Assembly: GCA_046543235.1 (NCBI GenBank)
Contig: JBKGZT010000004.1
Span: 1 to 40,318, forward strand
Direction: 5' to 3'
From: Candidatus Acetothermia bacterium
GTDB lineage: Bacteria > Bipolaricaulota > Bipolaricaulia > M55B111
Length of the DNA stretch: 40,318 nt
Made by a program: the position numbers. Shown in pieces: positions 12,001 through 18,000 of the stretch. The stretch's first letter is position 1; every line of letters begins with the position of its first letter.

Positions 12001-15000
12001 CTTCGGGAGTATTGACGACTACGGTGTCCGAGAGACCGATGGCAACAGTCGGTTTGCCTGTCTCTTCATAGACGAGGCTACCGCTCGAATCTCGAAAAAT
12101 CACTTCCCCTTCAGAAGCGTTGTCCTCAGGATCCCGTTCCAGCAGGGTCGCAAAACTTGGCCAGTCGCCGAGGTCGGACCACTCCACGGAAGCAGGCAAC
12201 ACGGCCCTGTTTTTGGCTTTCTCCATGAGGCCGTAATCTATCGAGGTACCCGAAAGCCTCTTGTATTCCTCACGCAGGACATCTCCTTCCTCTTCTCCCC
12301 CAACAGCGTCCTTTATATTCTTCAGCCCACCGAACAGTTCGGGCATGTATTCTTCGAGTCCCTCCAGCAGCTTATCGGTCCGCCAGACGAACGTGCCGCT
12401 GTTCCAGTAGTAATTCCCCGCCGCCAGGAACTTCTCCGCTCGACGGGAGTCGGGCTTTTCAGTAAAGCTAAGCACCCTCCTGGCCGGCTCGAAGCCCTGA
12501 AGTTCCTCCCCGGCCTCGATATAGCCGTATCCGGTCGCCGCTCTCGTAGGTTCGATTCCCAGGGTCACTAGTTCCCCCCCTGTTCCGGCCACCTCAGCCC
12601 CTTTCATCAGGATTTCACGGAAACGTTCTTCTCGACCCACCAGGTGATCCGCCGGCAGCACGACCATCACCGAGTTTTCCCGATCAAGCCCGAGGTATTC
12701 TTCAGAATAGATCGCCGACAATCCGATACAAGGAGCAGTATTTCTGCCCATGGGCTCCTCGATAACGTTTCTCTCGGGCAGCTCCGGCAGCTGTGAATTA
12801 ACCAGCTCACCTTTTCCCTTGTTGGTTACGACCAGTACGTTCTCTTTCTCGATGAGGGGCCTAATCCTCTCGTAGGTTCGGGCAAGCAGGGATTTCCCGT
12901 TCACCCCTATAAACTGTTTTGGCCTTTCCGGCGTACTCAGCGGCCACAGCCTTCTTCCCCTGCCTCCGGCCATTATTACGGCATAAGTCGTATAGTCTTC
13001 CATTTTTTCCTCCCTATCAGGAAACTAGAATTCAACCATCAAACCCGCCGATCCGTAATAGCTGCTGTAGAGCTCACCCGAATCGTCGAACCCGACGTTG
13101 ACCCCGGACACGAAAGAGACTCCCCAGCGGTCCCGGAATGGGTAAGAGAACTCCGTCTCGGTATTGACGTCCACCTCTCCCGAACCGGGAAAGTAATCGA
13201 GTCCGAAATCCAATTCGGGAGAAAGTTTTGAATTTATCTTCCAGCTAAGCGAATCTTCCAGGTTATAGGACCATCCATCCTCGGCCTTGTAGCTAACCCC
13301 TGTCTTCAAACGGTTATTTAGGCCCGGAGCTAACTCCCATCTCGTACCCAGGCTCAGATTACCACTATATTTGGTTTTCCGGCCGAAGTCCGGATGGGTC
13401 AACAGATTCCGGCTCAGCCGAAAGCTTACGTCTGGAGTCATTTCCTCGAACTCGTAACTCACTCCGGCCTGTACTTTATCCTCATACTCCACCAGTCGGC
13501 TGCCAATCGGGTATCTGACGTTCCGACTCAGGCTGGTATTCGAACTAAAGTTCCCTAGAAGGACCTCCCCGTCAAGCTTTCCGGAAAGCTGGTTGGAAGA
13601 ACTATCACCCTCCCAGGAAAAGGAAACGGAAGGAGACAGGTCCAGGTCCTGAACGCTCAGCTCACCGGGAGTTAACTCAATTCCGACCTTGCTATCGGAA
13701 GAATTGAAGCCTTCGAGGGAGGGTTTATCGAGGTTGCCCTCGCCGTCCAGGCTGAAGTTCACAGCGTAGTCGGGATTGATAGGGAAATCCCGGGAGAAGT
13801 CGAAATTCCAGGTAAGCTTTTCGCTCTCCGCCTTTTCCAAAGAGCCGAAAGTCAAAGGATAAGTGTAGTCAAGGCCTATATTACCCGTTCCCCATGGGGA
13901 TACTGAAAGCCTCGAAGCCAAAGTTACCGAGTCCGTCGTCGAACCGGAGGAGCTCAGCCTCCTGTCCGCCGTAACGTTCAAAGCGGTAGTCAGGTTCTCG
14001 TTCCAGAAGGTCTTATCCAGCCCCAAAACCAGCCCGAGATCCGTCCGACCTTTTCCTCCTGTATCCCAGGTAAACTCGGCACTTCCGTCCACCAGAGCTT
14101 TCCAGTACCCGGATATTCGGTTGGTAACGGTCCAGTCCTCAAACCCGGTCGACAGAGAGGAAACGGAATACTCGGTCCCCAGCCCGAGAGAAAAGTTATC
14201 GGTTACCTCCGCCTCCACCCTTACCCCGGTCGACAGTTTATCCTTCCGCTCCCGCCGGCCGATGGCGGTGTAGGTCGGCTGGTAGTACTCGAAATCGGAT
14301 GAGAAAGAAACTTCTCTTGACCAAACATCCAGATCCTTTTTTGCCTCGCCGGCCAGGAATATTCCTCTGTCCGTATGGCTACCCGGATCTATGCTCCTGT
14401 AGCGGTTCTCGTCTATCCCCTCTATTCCGGTCTCTTCTACCCCGTAGCGGTTTAAACCTTCGGCCAGCTGATAGACGGTCAACTCAGTATCATCATCCAG
14501 GTTTCTTCCCCGGCTACCGGCCCAGATGCTCTCCCCGGTGACCAGGAGTGCAGTTACCCTCTCCTTCCCGTAACTGGCAGTTTCATCGACCTTTTTGAAG
14601 CCCCGGTCCGTCCCGAACCAGATCTCCCCGTTCCGCGTAGAAATGGACCGTACCGCCTCTCCTTCTACAAGTCTCTCCTCCTCGGCGTCCACCCCCACCC
14701 TGGTCATTCCTTCGGGCGTACCGACGAGAAGCTTCCCGTCGGACACCAGCGCGTCCTCCACCACGCTATCGATCACCGGCCCTTCACCAACCAGCTCCTC
14801 CTCTTCCAGGTCAAACAGGTACAAGCCATCCTTCGTACCGAGCCATAGGTGTTCTTCGACGAAGGAAACCGTCTCGATCGCCGCTTCGTCCAGCTCTCCC
14901 AGATCAATTTCGTTCCATGGGTCGTCTTCCCCCAGTTCGCCGGTTTCAAAACGGAACACCCCGGAACTCGTCCCCACCCAAATTCTCCCGTCGTCGCTCG

Positions 15001-18000
15001 CCAGCGATAGTAGCTCCGTTTCCGGTAGGCCGTCCGATTCGTAGTAGCTCTCCCAGTTATCGGACCTGCCAAACGGGGAAGTACCGGTCAAGTCGACGCT
15101 GGTGAGTCCGCCTACCGTCGCCAGGTATAACTTACCGTCGACGACCAGTCCTTCGTTTACCTTGTCAGCGGACAGCCCGTCGTTCGTACCGAAACTTTCC
15201 CAACTATCAGGTCTTCTGGCGGTAAAACCGTTATCATGAAGAAACAGAATTTCTTCGTAACCGGCGTCCTCGAGGGAGATAACGCCGTTGATCTGGTTCG
15301 GTAGATGAACCCTCTCGTTGTCGTCAAAAGGAAACCTGTTCAGATTACCGCCGAACCTTAATCCGAGGTTCCAGCCGTTTTTCTGATAGTTCGCCCCCAC
15401 CCCGACAACACTGTGTACGTTTGGCATGGTAGACACTTCGGGCGGTAATTCGGCCGGGGCGCTGTCCCTTGCCTGAAAAAGGTGGACATCCGCCGTCAGC
15501 CCGTAATCGGACTCCAGGCTCGTACTGAATCCGTAGAGAGTTCGACCAAACTGGGCGAAGCCTCCCAGTCCATCGCGCGCGCGCTCGAAGTCAACTTTCA
15601 GTTCGTCATCCGGCCCGAGCTCTCGAAAAAGGATCAGGGCTCCCGTCTCGTAGTCGATCGAATAATCGGTATCTTTCGTCAGTAGTTCCCCGTTTAGATA
15701 GACCTCTTCGCTATCCGGAGCTACGGAAAACCCAAGCATGTAAGTCTTTCCGGATATTTCGTACTGGAAGCTCGCCCTCATCCCTGCCCCTTCCAGGTCG
15801 GAGAAGAACTCATCCGGAAAATCGACCTCGAAGACACCTTTACCCGCGAAGAGATCGTAACCGTACCCGGTCAGGCCATCGACCGACGTCCAGTCCCCGT
15901 CCTGCCGGACTTGCAACTCAAAACCGTCCCTGTTAACACCGGTTTGACCGAGGAAGTAAAACCTCTCTTGTGAGTAGTCATCTATCTCCAGCTCGTCATC
16001 TCCGACGGTTAGGCGGATATAACTTTTTAAAGCCTCCAGGAATTCCTCTTCCAGATCCGTACCACGATTGAAGGGGTACTCCTCCTGCTCTTCCTCCGGA
16101 AGGTTCTGGTTATAGGCCGAAATATAGTCCTTGACCCAGGATCTAGACAAGGTATTTACTTCCTCTAAAAGCAGAAGGTAATCCTGTTCTTCGGATATTA
16201 CCGTAAACCGGTCTGAATCGAGTTCTTTTTCCGGTTCCTCGGTGATTACCTCTTCCAGGTAACCAAGTTCCCATCCCTGCAGGAATTCCACTAGCCCGGC
16301 GCCGGTCCTGAACTCGGCCTCCGGAGTGGTAAAGCCTTCTACGTATTCCACGTCAAGCTCGTAGTACTGCAAACCGCGAATACTTTCATCGTACCCGGTT
16401 TCTTCCAGCCCCGCATCAGTTCTGTAAAGCGAGTACTCCACTTCCGATTCCCCGGTGTCACCCCGAAATACTTTGGTCTCGGATATGCCCTGGAGCCTTC
16501 CCGCTATCGCTCTTACGCCGGCCCCATCGAGGGCTCCGTCGAGCTCGAGGCCCAGGAGTTTCTTGTTGTAGACGGTAAAGTTATCCCCATCCCCCGCAAC
16601 TATGTTCCCGGCTAGCCCGTCCCAGTTATCGGTGTCCATCCTGAGTTCGAATTCCTGAAGGTAACCCGGCTCCGTGTCGTCAAGGTTGGCGGAAAGCGAG
16701 AAAACCTCGCCGATCTCCCCGCTCAAGTCCACTTTAAGGGTCTGGCTGAGCGAGTACGAATCCTTGGGGTAGCCAACTTCCGACAGGCTGCCACCGTCTC
16801 CGATACCCCCCTCAACCGTCCATGTCTTCTCCCCTCCCAGGTCGATCCGAAAGGAACCCGTCTGCACGGTCAGCGCTTCCACCTCGCCGACCGAGATACT
16901 CAAAACCAGGAAAAAGACGAAAACAATAAAAAAACCGACCACAAGGTTCTTCTTATGGTTTTCCATGAGAACACCATTTCGAATCCAAGATGGTTGATCA
17001 CCTCTACAGTATCCAATCCTAAACCACGAGATAACGACCGTGCAAACTAAAGCGTCACAAATAGGGGTTAAGCCTGATCCCCCTTCTTTCGGACCTCGGA
17101 ACTATAGCCGCCAGGGACTCCAGGGTACCCTCATGATCCTCAGTTTTGACCATCAGGTAGCTCCGGCGCCCGCTTCCCTCAAGGCGATCTTCTTCTTCCC
17201 GGGGACCGAGCACAGTTAGGACGGAGGACATCCTCCCTAATTCACGTTTCAGTCCGTCGATTAGACTCCCCTGCTGGCCCTCCCCTTCTCTTATCTCTAT
17301 CTCTAACAACCCCCTGTAGGGCGGGTAATCCATGGTTTCCCGGGATTCCAGCTCTCTCTCATACAGCTCCCGCCATCCTTTTGATTTAACCATCCCAAAC
17401 GGGGCCTGGCGGGGACGGGCCCCCTGGAGATAAATTCGTCCTCCGGGACGGACGAGATCGTAGCCGAGAAACAATCTCTTTAAAAACAGCTCCGTCGAAC
17501 GGTAGGTCGGCCTGTTGAGCAGGAGGTTCACGTCCATCAGGCCAACCAGGGGGACCCACCCCCGGAAGAAAAGGCTTCCGACGAGAGAAGTTCCCAGCAG
17601 GATATCTATTTCTCCCCGGCGTAGATCCCGAACCGCGGAGGACAGAAAGCTACGGTCGTCCTCGCGGGGATCGTAACTCCGGACGCGCGCAGCGGGTAAA
17701 TACGTACCGAGCTCTTCCTTGACTTCCTTTAGCCCTCCTCCGATAAACCTTACCTCGTCGCTCCCACAGCTCGGACACTCCATTATATCCTCCTTCTCTC
17801 CGCAGTAAGGACATACGCCGTAACTTCCCTGACTCCTGAAAGCCAAAGGTACTCCACAGCTCGGACAGCGTAGGACATCTCCACAATCCCTACAGATAGC
17901 CGCATTAGACGGTCCGGCCCTCTCACCTATGATCAAAGCCGGGTTACCATCCTCGTAATTCCGTTTTAGATCCCCGAGAAAGTTATCGGTCAGCGGACTG

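Follow-up and report, generated by a model that had tools for sequence, protein, structure and literature searches.

A distant SprA homologue in Bipolaricaulota as candidate translocon for a proposed minimal pathway of T9SS-like export

In the excerpts of the literature available to us, the T9SS is described as restricted to Bacteroidota or to bacteria of the FCB group. Its translocon SprA is depicted, in the accessible part of PMC10994853, as a barrel of 36 strands that is capped on the outside and opens laterally. Our literature search returned no relevant account of a T9SS in Bipolaricaulota/Acetothermia, nor of minimal, T9SS-like or SprA-like systems. Here we describe a SprA-like gene from Candidatus Acetothermia bacterium, located in a 40,318-nucleotide stretch of contig JBKGZT010000004.1 that is referred to as the window.

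Gene, family and homology to SprA

The gene and its surroundings comprise the following features, in window coordinates.

13025..16966 including stop codon, minus strand: whole gene for the 1313-aa SprA-like outer-membrane protein; intact ORF with ATG start
16874..16966, minus strand: putative signal peptide, residues 1-31; read from the sequence as a hydrophobic segment followed by VEA and the cleavage-like site
16430..16852, minus strand: N-terminal barrel strands, residues ~39-179, nine long strands; DSSP of model 1 and profile alignment to SprA 144-284
15557..16429, minus strand: insert 1, residues ~180-470, an alpha/beta domain plus a SprA-type 'DYsIDYEtG' beta domain, as seen in the models
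15335..15547, minus strand: four barrel strands separating the two inserts, residues ~474-544; DSSP of both models and SprA alignment up to residue 785
14405..15304, minus strand: beta-propeller of Reg_prop type with about seven blades, residues ~555-854, in a barrel loop; Pfam Reg_prop and HTCS matches
13028..14374, minus strand: C-terminal barrel part, residues ~865-1313, 25 long strands up to the invariant Phe; DSSP of models 1 and 2
16967..17054, no strand: 88-bp gap between priA and the SprA-like gene, the place where relatives carry an S8-CTD and a PorV-like gene

The first-pass annotation had described a 1313-aa ORF with a signal peptide, a propeller and a barrel ending in Phe, and all of these hold: the hydrophobic N-terminal segment runs into a cleavage-like site between VEA and LTVQ, and the protein terminates in GLMVEF, with the final Phe (F1313) invariant in 29/29 aligned family members. 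The same 29 sequences share the invariant residues D434, Y439, G442 and E461 in insert 1. The protein has a pI of 4.19 and contains no cysteine. Family ORFs were intact in all 58 loci examined, at 1266-1460 aa, and the gene is single-copy in 40 of the 41 class genomes sampled, extending the class-wide presence reported earlier for 20 of 21. Those database matches of the family that bear a taxon name are Bipolaricaulota or Acetothermia. The view that the protein belongs to no Pfam or NCBIfam family has to be corrected for Pfam, where Reg_prop, and nothing else, scored 26.9 bits (cut-off 20.4), and stands for NCBIfam, where the sole match was a sub-threshold one to TIGR04189 (SprA) over residues 399-483 (20.5 bits versus a cut-off of 200), with positions 588-677 of that model aligning to window 15497-15772.

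When compared with the PDB, the family profile matched SprA (6h3i/6h3j) at 7.2e-9 and an N-terminal profile matched it at 4.8e-10, reproducing the two collinear segments noticed before: profile positions 14-148 correspond to SprA 144-284, and 369-477 to SprA 679-785. Similarly, the earlier match to a PF14349 protein was recovered in a profile search (a 2082-aa protein at 4.7e-5), and the insert 1 region scored 55.9 bits against a PF14349 protein. The PF14349 (SprA_N) model itself gave no match to the SprA-like protein at E<=0.01, as had been noted, so that the protein misses the curated SprA cut-offs of both this model and TIGR04189. Among 1.84 billion proteins, the N-terminal profile found 2708 at E<=1e-3 and 112 at <=1e-30. 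TIGR04189 was matched by 25 of the 28 second-tier proteins scanned, four of them above the 200-bit cut-off, and hhalign of the SprA-like family against 12 of these 28 short SprA-type proteins gave a probability of 99.9% and an E-value of 1.4e-33 over 446 columns. This alignment spans residues 44-536 of 1313, the part to which sequence homology is limited, and goes beyond the ~230 residues stated earlier; the hhalign values then given were 88.5% and E 2.7e-06. At the level of sequence, these comparisons show a detectable common ancestry with SprA. The proposal of a distant, half-size SprA/Sov homologue in a non-FCB phylum is therefore supported and has been strengthened by the hhalign result, by SprA being the best PDB fold match (see below) and by the taxon names of the family.

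Predicted fold of the SprA-like protein

The protein was modelled with AF2 as two overlapping pieces (pLDDT 84.8 and 87.3), each of which leaves out one end of the chain. In Foldseek searches of the PDB, the top three matches of both models were SprA chains (E 3.2e-17 and 5.9e-20; TMq 0.41-0.42), whereas the next-best matches had a TMq of at most 0.19, with LptD chains at 0.13-0.15; SprA is thus the best fold match along the full length of the protein. DSSP counted ~38 long strands over the two partial models, and the protein is predicted to form a giant beta-barrel of ~36-38 strands. In the predicted architecture, two barrel loops carry folded inserts, namely the alpha/beta plus DY-motif domain and the Reg_prop propeller, which would probably cap the pore on the outside, making insert 1 a putative extracellular cap. 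The match of the propeller to HTCS sensors, reported earlier, was reproduced by sequence at 4.4e-23. By structure, it superimposed on 3v9f_A with a VIA-align Z of ~26 and an rmsd of 2.7 A over 257 aligned residues, and 7-bladed WD40 proteins reached like scores. As for the presence of an outer membrane, BamA is encoded in the genome from which the window derives.

Cargo and carrier genes in the neighbourhood and across the class

The usual cluster consists of a gene for a CTD-bearing S8 peptidase, a PorV/PorQ-family barrel gene and the SprA-like gene, in this order. An S8-peptidase/CTD-cluster gene lies beside the SprA-like gene in 45 of 53 loci (at position -2 and on the same strand in 35), and a PorV-like gene does so in 37/53 (position -1 in 31). 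In loci L009, L012, L017 and L018 the order reads priA, S8-CTD, PorV-like, SprA-like. Apart from these, the conserved neighbours are housekeeping genes, and no transporter or TonB-type gene was found among them. Nor do they include the accessory proteins SprE/PorW, Skp-like, PPI, Plug, PorT or PorP, for which no dedicated search was run. The neighbouring S8 peptidase scored 29.6 bits against TIGR04183 (cut-off 23), and the best PDB match of the CTD profile was the CTD of PorU (1.3e-10). The small barrel matched NF033709 (PorV_fam) over the full model length with 58-94 bits (cut-off 90), and the sole PDB match of its profile was PorV, 6h3i_F, at 6.1e-17. A complex predicted from the PorV-like protein and the CTD of its neighbour scored 0.90, and the best of three controls 0.00; among reference cases, 116 of 157 solved complexes attain this mark, as do 2 of 215 mismatched pairs; at least 97% of contacts were shared between runs, and partner pLDDT was at least 88. 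A similar complex has already been solved, so the prediction shows likeness and may reflect the predictor having memorised it.

PorV_fam genes are present in 38 of 41 class genomes, and Por_Secre_tail CTD proteins in 36/41 at E<=0.01, a figure that includes 14 genomes with matches above the cut-off and 22 in which the CTD matches are all sub-threshold. The best 12 CTD matches all lie at the extreme C-terminus, with 2-19 residues left to the stop codon, and show the motifs PNPA, VYD..G..V and GLY. Genes for PorV-type carriers accompany the SprA-like family, and the class encodes candidate substrates bearing a sorting domain at the C-terminus (TIGR04183, PF18962), among them S8 peptidases, cohesin/PKD proteins and beta-helix proteins. 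The arrangement of a CTD gene followed by a PorV-like gene recurs several times per genome. The CTD-like domains also resemble FlgD Ig domains.

Genes for the T9SS motor, hub and sortase and for lipid A synthesis were not detected in the genomes searched. GldL (TIGR03513) was found in 0 of 41 class genomes and GldM (TIGR03517) in 0 of 21, both in searches that had no positive control; MotA_ExbB (PF01618) was found in 0 of 5 genomes, with 9/14 controls positive. The hub model GldK (TIGR03525) matched in 6 of 21 genomes with its C-terminal part (model ~218-406) and with no score above 102 bits, against a cut-off of 350; it also gives matches in B. subtilis and others. The match of PorU (NF033707) was confined to the CTD part (positions 962-1095), and no PorU sortase was found. 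LpxC was found in none of five genomes, two of them closed, and the phylum is apparently LPS-less. The motor and hub genes appear to be missing from the genomes searched, and to this extent the first-pass statement that the family occurs without other T9SS genes, partners or CTD cargo remains valid. For carriers and cargo it does not apply to the family, given the locus and genome counts above, and it is literally true of the window's own assembly, which is 87% complete.

In this assembly we found no PorV-like gene in six frames, whereas the same HMM gave 121 bits for the copy of a close relative, and no S8-CTD orthologue; the sole CTD-like protein scored 21.5 bits, below the cut-off of 23. 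The S8-CTD/PorV-like pair is absent between priA and the SprA-like gene in the window, L004, L007, L008, L011 and L019, with gene order otherwise identical, and in the window, L004, L007 and L019 the SprA-like gene comes straight after priA. The adjacent cargo-carrier pair is lost from the locus in the window's sublineage and the translocon gene is kept. It would follow from a pathway that is decaying or rewired there that the pair was deleted and that the barrel works without a PorV-type carrier or in another role, a scenario in keeping with the missing pair and with the lack of a PorV_fam match in G000, G022 and G026 as well as in G041, G043 and G044, the last three belonging to a group of five relatives whose locus lacks the pair. 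We nevertheless consider it unlikely. With a dN/dS of 0.12-0.13, purifying selection acts on the SprA-like gene in the very genomes whose locus lacks the pair, and a conserved CTD-bearing beta-helix cargo is retained in the sublineage. In G042 a PorV-like gene lies ahead of this cargo, at a place that in the window's genome falls beyond the end of contig C13. In addition, the assemblies are fragmented, with G000, G022 and G026 at 84-87% completeness and no completeness figure for the other three.

Proposed pathway and comparison with known systems

Homology, predicted fold, gene clustering, co-occurrence and purifying selection support the reading that the SprA-like protein serves Bipolaricaulota as outer-membrane translocon in a minimal, T9SS-like route of export, apparently one without a motor, and we regard this as likely. 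Counting against it are the lack of a PorV-like gene and of an S8-CTD orthologue in the window's assembly, its single, sub-threshold CTD-like protein, the missing PorV_fam match in G041, G043 and G044, the failure to reach either curated SprA model, the restriction of sequence homology to residues 44-536, the sub-threshold CTD matches of 22 genomes and the likeness of the CTD-like domains to FlgD Ig domains. From these data we infer transport, its direction, docking of the carrier and the lack of energy input. Cargo carrying both a signal peptide for Sec and a CTD resembling type A, such as S8 peptidases, cohesin/PKD and beta-helix proteins, would reach the periplasm and enter the SprA-like barrel. 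Its CTD would dock onto loops of a small barrel of the PorV/PorQ family, mostly encoded directly after the cargo gene. Cargo and carrier would then exit the pore through its side and arrive on the cell surface. Since the genomes searched yielded no GldLM-type motor, GldK-type hub, PorU, lipid A synthesis genes or stator of the MotA/ExbB type, we presume that the proton-motive force does not drive release and that the cargo may remain bound to its carrier. More tentatively, and with somewhat more doubt than confidence, we put forward that a short SprA-type pore, PorV-type carriers dedicated to each cargo and CTD cargo could form a self-sufficient three-part type IX pathway in an LPS-free, toga-like membrane, operating without motor, hub ring or sortase, and that, jointly with this, the three parts could represent the T9SS core, either ancestral or pared down.

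A different role would be that of a big pore or receptor in the outer membrane with no part in protein export, for instance a glycan-binding uptake channel with a sensor-like propeller, which has nothing but ancestry in common with SprA. The best matches of the propeller, in sequence and structure, are indeed HTCS glycan sensors, the gene is kept in the window's genome without a detectable PorV-like partner, and the available part of the Ran1 paper (PMC6092417) interprets the outer membrane of Acetothermia as scaffolding that holds transporters for nutrients. Yet the tight and wide clustering with the PorV-family barrel and CTD proteins, their class-wide co-occurrence and the lack of transporter or TonB-type genes among the conserved neighbours make such a channel improbable. 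Least of all do we favour a structural outer-membrane protein (an S-layer/toga anchor or envelope-biogenesis factor) merely resembling SprA, which would suit a single-copy, near-universal gene of small genomes and the toga-like outer membrane with S-layer described for a cultured phylum member in the accessible part of bioRxiv 10.1101/2025.11.21.689855, but which leaves the specific PorV-family and CTD link unexplained for a protein in which the Pfam scan found no SLH or tether domain.

If the translocon reading is correct, the T9SS would have a wider range, since a conserved module of SprA-like protein, PorV-like protein and CTD cargo would occur in a distant phylum that lacks LPS and has very small genomes. 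The module would explain the surface display of proteases, cohesin/PKD and beta-helix proteins, and would offer a natural minimal T9SS, its translocon halved in size and no motor detected, for studying what pore and carrier can do alone. Should the three-part pathway hold true as well, the energy-requiring release of Bacteroidota would be an addition that SprA-type transport does not inherently need. The analysis also supplies a name for a family of more than 100 'hypothetical proteins'.

Among described systems, the SprA-like protein most closely resembles SprA/Sov, which acts as T9SS translocon in Bacteroidota (PDB 6h3i and 8gl6 for F. johnsoniae SprA). The two have in common the giant predicted barrel with folded inserts, collinear homology that covers the initial barrel strands as well as the DY-motif domain, and the gene association with a PorV-family barrel and CTD proteins. 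The SprA-like protein differs in length (1313 versus 2403 aa), in missing both curated models, in its Reg_prop propeller insert and in its occurrence in a non-FCB, apparently LPS-less phylum where GldL, GldM, GldK and PorU were not found in the genomes searched. Its closest relatives outside the family are SprA-type proteins of uncultured bacteria that are short (1300-1900 aa) and carry no annotation (for example P0154, P0132, P0127, and P0171, labelled Candidatus Firestonebacteria), which match the N-terminal profile at 1e-27 to 1e-38, are likewise far shorter than SprA and are named 'hypothetical protein', but score 140-243 bits on TIGR04189. The HTCS sensor propellers of Bacteroides (3ott, 4a2l, 3v9f) and the PorZ propellers (5m11) share the Reg_prop-type propeller, a single domain that is set here in an outer-membrane barrel loop with no link to a kinase. 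Finally, the T9SS cargo-carrier pairs of a type B CTD with a PorP/SprF-like protein show the same pairing of a secreted CTD protein with its own small barrel, repeated per genome, whereas here, judged against the accessible part of PMC9143113, the barrels belong to the PorV/PorQ family and the CTDs match type A models.

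The gene and its sequence homology to SprA

The minus-strand ORF at 13025-16966 of the window is intact over 1313 codons and encodes a very acidic protein (pI 4.19; 247 Asp+Glu versus 104 Lys+Arg) that contains no cysteine, has by eye a hydrophobic, signal-peptide-like N-terminus (…VGEVEA/LTVQ) and ends in …GLMVEF. The gene is flanked by housekeeping genes, as listed here.

Genes flanking the SprA-like gene in the window
further upstream: rpoB and a ribosomal-protein/nusG/tuf cluster
88 bp upstream: priA
21 bp downstream: a nucleotidyl transferase gene, followed by PGI, a GAF protein, KptA and GGT

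A scan of 12900-17300 found no promoter or terminator scoring above shuffles, and the only features detected by Rfam and tRNA scans of the window were five tRNAs with no bearing on the SprA-like gene. Next to rpoB in the window come not rpoC but NUDIX, metallo-beta-lactamase-fold and priA genes (20505-23837 and 17055-20536), an order also found in relatives, and the window's NusG (26038-27129) carries an extra inserted domain, PF18298. The stretch holding the SprA-like gene was present only in DNA runs, from hypersaline-lake and microbial-mat metagenomes of one study that is possibly its source; no RNA runs holding it were listed.

The sole Pfam match of the protein is Reg_prop (26.9 bits, cut-off 20.4) and the sole NCBIfam match is a weak one to the SprA model TIGR04189 at residues 399-483 (20.5 bits, cut-off 200), while a PDB search from the single sequence returned antibody light-chain noise only. 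The full family profile matched Flavobacterium johnsoniae SprA (6h3i, 6h3j) at 7.2e-9, and an N-terminal profile (residues 33-556, built from 42 genomes) did so at 4.8e-10, its two collinear segments aligning 14-148 to SprA 144-284 and 369-477 to SprA 679-785. The second segment shares the motif SERVYLNG..L.RDtDYsIDYEtG and scored 55.9 bits against a PF14349 protein. Across 1.84 billion representatives, hits of the N-terminal profile numbered 2708 at an E-value threshold of 1e-3, 897 at 1e-10 and 112 at 1e-30. Proteins of 1300-1900 aa with E-values of about 1e-27 to 1e-38 form a tier below the family itself; they are unannotated too, and one of them is labelled Candidatus Firestonebacteria. 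TIGR04189 was matched by 25 of 28 scanned proteins from this search, most of them from that tier, and four passed its 200-bit cut-off (P0127, 204; P0132, 210; P0145, 210; P0154, 243). When the family was aligned with 12 of these intermediate proteins, hhalign gave 99.9% probability and E 1.4e-33 over 446 columns, residues 44-536, so that the homology spans the first thirteen strands and the entire first insert of the predicted fold; the first-pass annotation had limited the homology to about 230 residues, a boundary that this alignment moves well outwards. In the window (15518-15772, residues 399-483) and in hits P0121, P0164 and P0178, the DY-motif domain common to SprA also shows resemblance to families of phage distal tail and tail tube proteins (TIGR02217, NF052337), and certain other large proteins carry 5-8 copies of it in tandem.

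A word-indexed protein search returned 39 proteins at E<=0.001, of which 35 belong to the family, complete or in part, with lengths of 884-1394 aa; those bearing names are 'hypothetical protein' entries of Candidatus Bipolaricaulota, Bipolaricaulia or Acetothermia. Of the remaining four, three are propeller proteins and one, at 4.7e-5, is a 2082-aa protein of PF14349 (SprA_N). ESM Atlas yielded only low-score leads and an unannotated 1409-aa 'hypothetical protein' cluster that is probably the family itself. With the N-terminal profile we found the gene, single-copy, in 40 of the 41 class genomes sampled (split across contigs in two), and family ORFs were intact in all 58 checked (1266-1564 aa by longest start codon). 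Further members occur in MAGs labelled by their submitters, and cited here as submitted, Bacillota, Fraserbacteria, Neomarinimicrobiota, Latescibacterota, Chloroflexi and 'uncultured Thermotogae' (loci L067-L079, L056, L078, L022, L034, L063), and many of these loci also have S8-CTD and PorV-like neighbours. One MAG, CAZDMI01, holds two copies of 70% identity on separate contigs (L008 and L010), possibly as a mixed bin.

Predicted fold

The protein was folded as two overlapping, unaltered pieces with family alignments, each lacking one end: residues 32-1231 (pLDDT 84.8, pTM 0.62, 35 sequences) and 114-1313 (pLDDT 87.3, pTM 0.65, 65 sequences). For both models the top three Foldseek matches in the PDB were the SprA chains 8gl6_A, 8gl8_A and 6h3i_A (E 3.2e-17 and 5.9e-20, TMq 0.41-0.42), with alignments running across all of SprA, and every other match was a propeller protein or LptD at TMq 0.13-0.15. 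In a second look with VIA-align, propeller matches filled the list and nothing was learned about the barrel. DSSP of the models and the propeller matches gave the following parts.

Parts of the predicted SprA-like protein
residues 39-179: N-terminal strands, 9 long strands (DSSP)
residues 180-470: alpha/beta insert, ending in the DY-motif domain (DSSP)
residues 474-544: 4 strands between the inserts (DSSP)
residues ~555-854: propeller, Z about 26 against HTCS sensors and seven-bladed WD40 proteins
residue 865 to the C-terminus: 25 C-terminal strands (DSSP)

In other outer-membrane barrels the C-terminus is periplasmic. If this also holds here and each of the 25 C-terminal strands spans the membrane, both inserts would by parity of the strands lie outside the cell, on the side on which SprA carries its cap. 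The DSSP count on the models of the pieces is about 38 long strands, compared with 36 reported for SprA in PMC10994853.

S8-CTD and PorV-like neighbours and their absence from the window's locus

In species-representative genomes 164 relatives were detected, and the best 80 loci were kept; after exclusion of 28 short or partial ones, neighbours were clustered on 53 loci, namely the window and 52 with the whole gene. The first neighbour cluster is present in 45 of the 53, on the same strand at position -2 in 35 and at position -1 in 7, and consists of S8 subtilases of ~700-800 aa, with some lineages reaching ~1600 aa. Of four representatives scanned, three end in a T9SS type A sorting domain (CTD; TIGR04183, 24-30 bits, cut-off 23) and the other gave FlgD_ig only in that place; the CTD portion of the PorU model was also matched by three of the four. 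The second cluster (37/53 loci, position -1 in 31) is a barrel protein of ~280-340 aa that aligns with NF033709, 'PorV/PorQ family', over the full length of the model (58-94 bits, cut-off 90) and matches the PorQ, PorV2 and PorV models as well. A profile of 39 such barrels had a single PDB match, the PorV of the SprA complex (6h3i_F, 6.1e-17), and a profile of 43 CTDs matched the PorU CTD best (1.3e-10), followed by FlgD Ig domains, a T9SS substrate CTD (8glj_D) and the PorZ CTD. When one PorV-like protein was modelled in complex with its upstream neighbour's CTD, the prediction scored 0.90, compared with 0.00 for the best control; among solved complexes 116 of 157 attain that score, and among mismatched pairs 2 of 215. 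Contact agreement between runs was at least 97% and partner pLDDT at least 88. Since PorV-CTD complexes have already been solved, the prediction shows likeness and may reflect memorised structures. Other conserved neighbours beyond this trio are housekeeping genes (MetRS, FtsH, PGM, Dxr, ThiF, Obg, L21), and in the closed genome G005 the order reads FtsH, then S8-CTD, PorV-like and SprA-like genes, then a second PorV-like gene and a PKD-CTD cargo.

The same components recur across the class. Por_Secre_tail (PF18962) was matched in 36 of 41 genomes at E<=0.01, in 14 above the Pfam cut-off, and the controls with matches, B. thetaiotaomicron and L. lactis, had them only under the cut-off; all 12 of the 12 best CTD matches end 2-19 residues short of the stop codon and carry the motifs PNPA, VYD..G..V, GLY and K/R-LV. 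PorV_fam (NF033709), which matched its positive control B. thetaiotaomicron, was found in 38 of 41 genomes and in 32 of 32 of good quality, mostly in several copies and in just 3 above cut-off; it was used in place of the too insensitive Pfam PorV model PF19572 (0/41). By coordinates, a CTD gene directly followed by a PorV-like gene is a recurrent arrangement, and the cargoes scanned include S8 peptidases, cohesin+PKD proteins, PKD proteins and right-handed beta-helix proteins. Contigs C4 of G024 (L111), C42 of G028 (L113), C6 of G008 (L112) and C1 of G005 (L114) illustrate that a genome may hold a single such cassette or several, and that some of them are stacked beside the SprA-like gene.

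The window itself lacks the S8-CTD/PorV-like pair. Relatives L009, L012 and L018 share the order rpoB, NUDIX, MBL, priA, S8-CTD, PorV-like, SprA-like, NTP-transferase, PGI, GAF, KptA, GGT, as does L017, where GGT and the MBL gene are missing. This order minus the pair is seen in the window, L004 and L007, with an unrelated ORF replacing NUDIX in L007. At L019 priA immediately precedes the SprA-like gene, and L008 and L011 are also without both clusters, while the trio is kept in the same-genus genomes G006, G010 and G034 and in G014 of the same family. The window's genome assembly (97 contigs, 1.32 Mb, 87% complete), which encodes an Omp85/BamA protein, gave no PorV-like gene in a six-frame search with an HMM that gives the copy of the related genome G042 121 bits, and no S8-CTD orthologue; the tblastn and HMM candidates for either were PKD-domain lipoproteins only. 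Its lone CTD-like protein is a beta-helix/CARDB protein of 1164 aa on contig C13 (TIGR04183, 21.5 bits, cut-off 23), the G042 orthologue of which lies above the cut-off at 29.3 bits and has upstream of it a PorV-like gene (304 aa) and a further CTD protein. Only 25 nt separate the start of the cargo gene from the end of C13, so the corresponding PorV-like place is unassembled in the window's genome. The 819-aa ORF that follows this cargo (C13, 3744-6203; L115) has a signal-peptide-like start and no Pfam family, and the two genes stay paired in G042. Among five related genomes with a pair-less locus, PorV_fam and TIGR04183 each gave matches in two. In such pair-less genomes the SprA-like gene is under purifying selection, with dN/dS of 0.12 (dS 0.61) between L004 and L005 and 0.13 between L008 and L011.

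An apparently reduced module compared with the T9SS

Several T9SS parts were sought. GldL was matched in 0 of 41 class genomes and GldM in 0 of 21, both in searches run without a positive control; GldK was matched in 6 of 21 by its C-terminal part only (model positions ~218-406, at most 102 bits, cut-off 350), with a model that unrelated control genomes match too, and the PorU model matched solely through its CTD part. In the five genomes G000 (the window's own), G004, G005, G009 and G024, two of which are closed, neither LpxC (4 controls positive) nor MotA/ExbB/TolQ (9/14 controls positive) was found. The LpxC result agrees with the Ran1 genome, reported without LPS genes in PMC6092417. A Bipolaricaulota strain in culture is reported in bioRxiv 10.1101/2025.11.21.689855.

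Homology, predicted fold, clustering, co-occurrence and selection are shown for the SprA-like module, and the steps that follow are modelled on the Bacteroidota T9SS as described in PMC10994853. CTD proteins exported by Sec would enter the SprA-like barrel from the periplasm, loops of a PorV-type carrier would bind the CTD at a side opening of the barrel, and carrier and cargo would then leave the pore laterally. Since motor, hub, sortase and LPS were all not found, release would presumably not be driven by protons, and the cargo may stay on its own carrier; both suggestions are speculation.

In the literature searched, we found only papers of incidental bearing on a T9SS in Bipolaricaulota or Acetothermia, and no relevant report of a T9SS-like or minimal T9SS or of SprA-like or Sov-like proteins or SprA homologs. 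The T9SS literature consulted describes the system as specific to Bacteroidota or the FCB group. The SprA-like protein, a remote homologue of SprA that does not pass the curated models of SprA, belongs to a reduced, T9SS-like module outside the FCB group.
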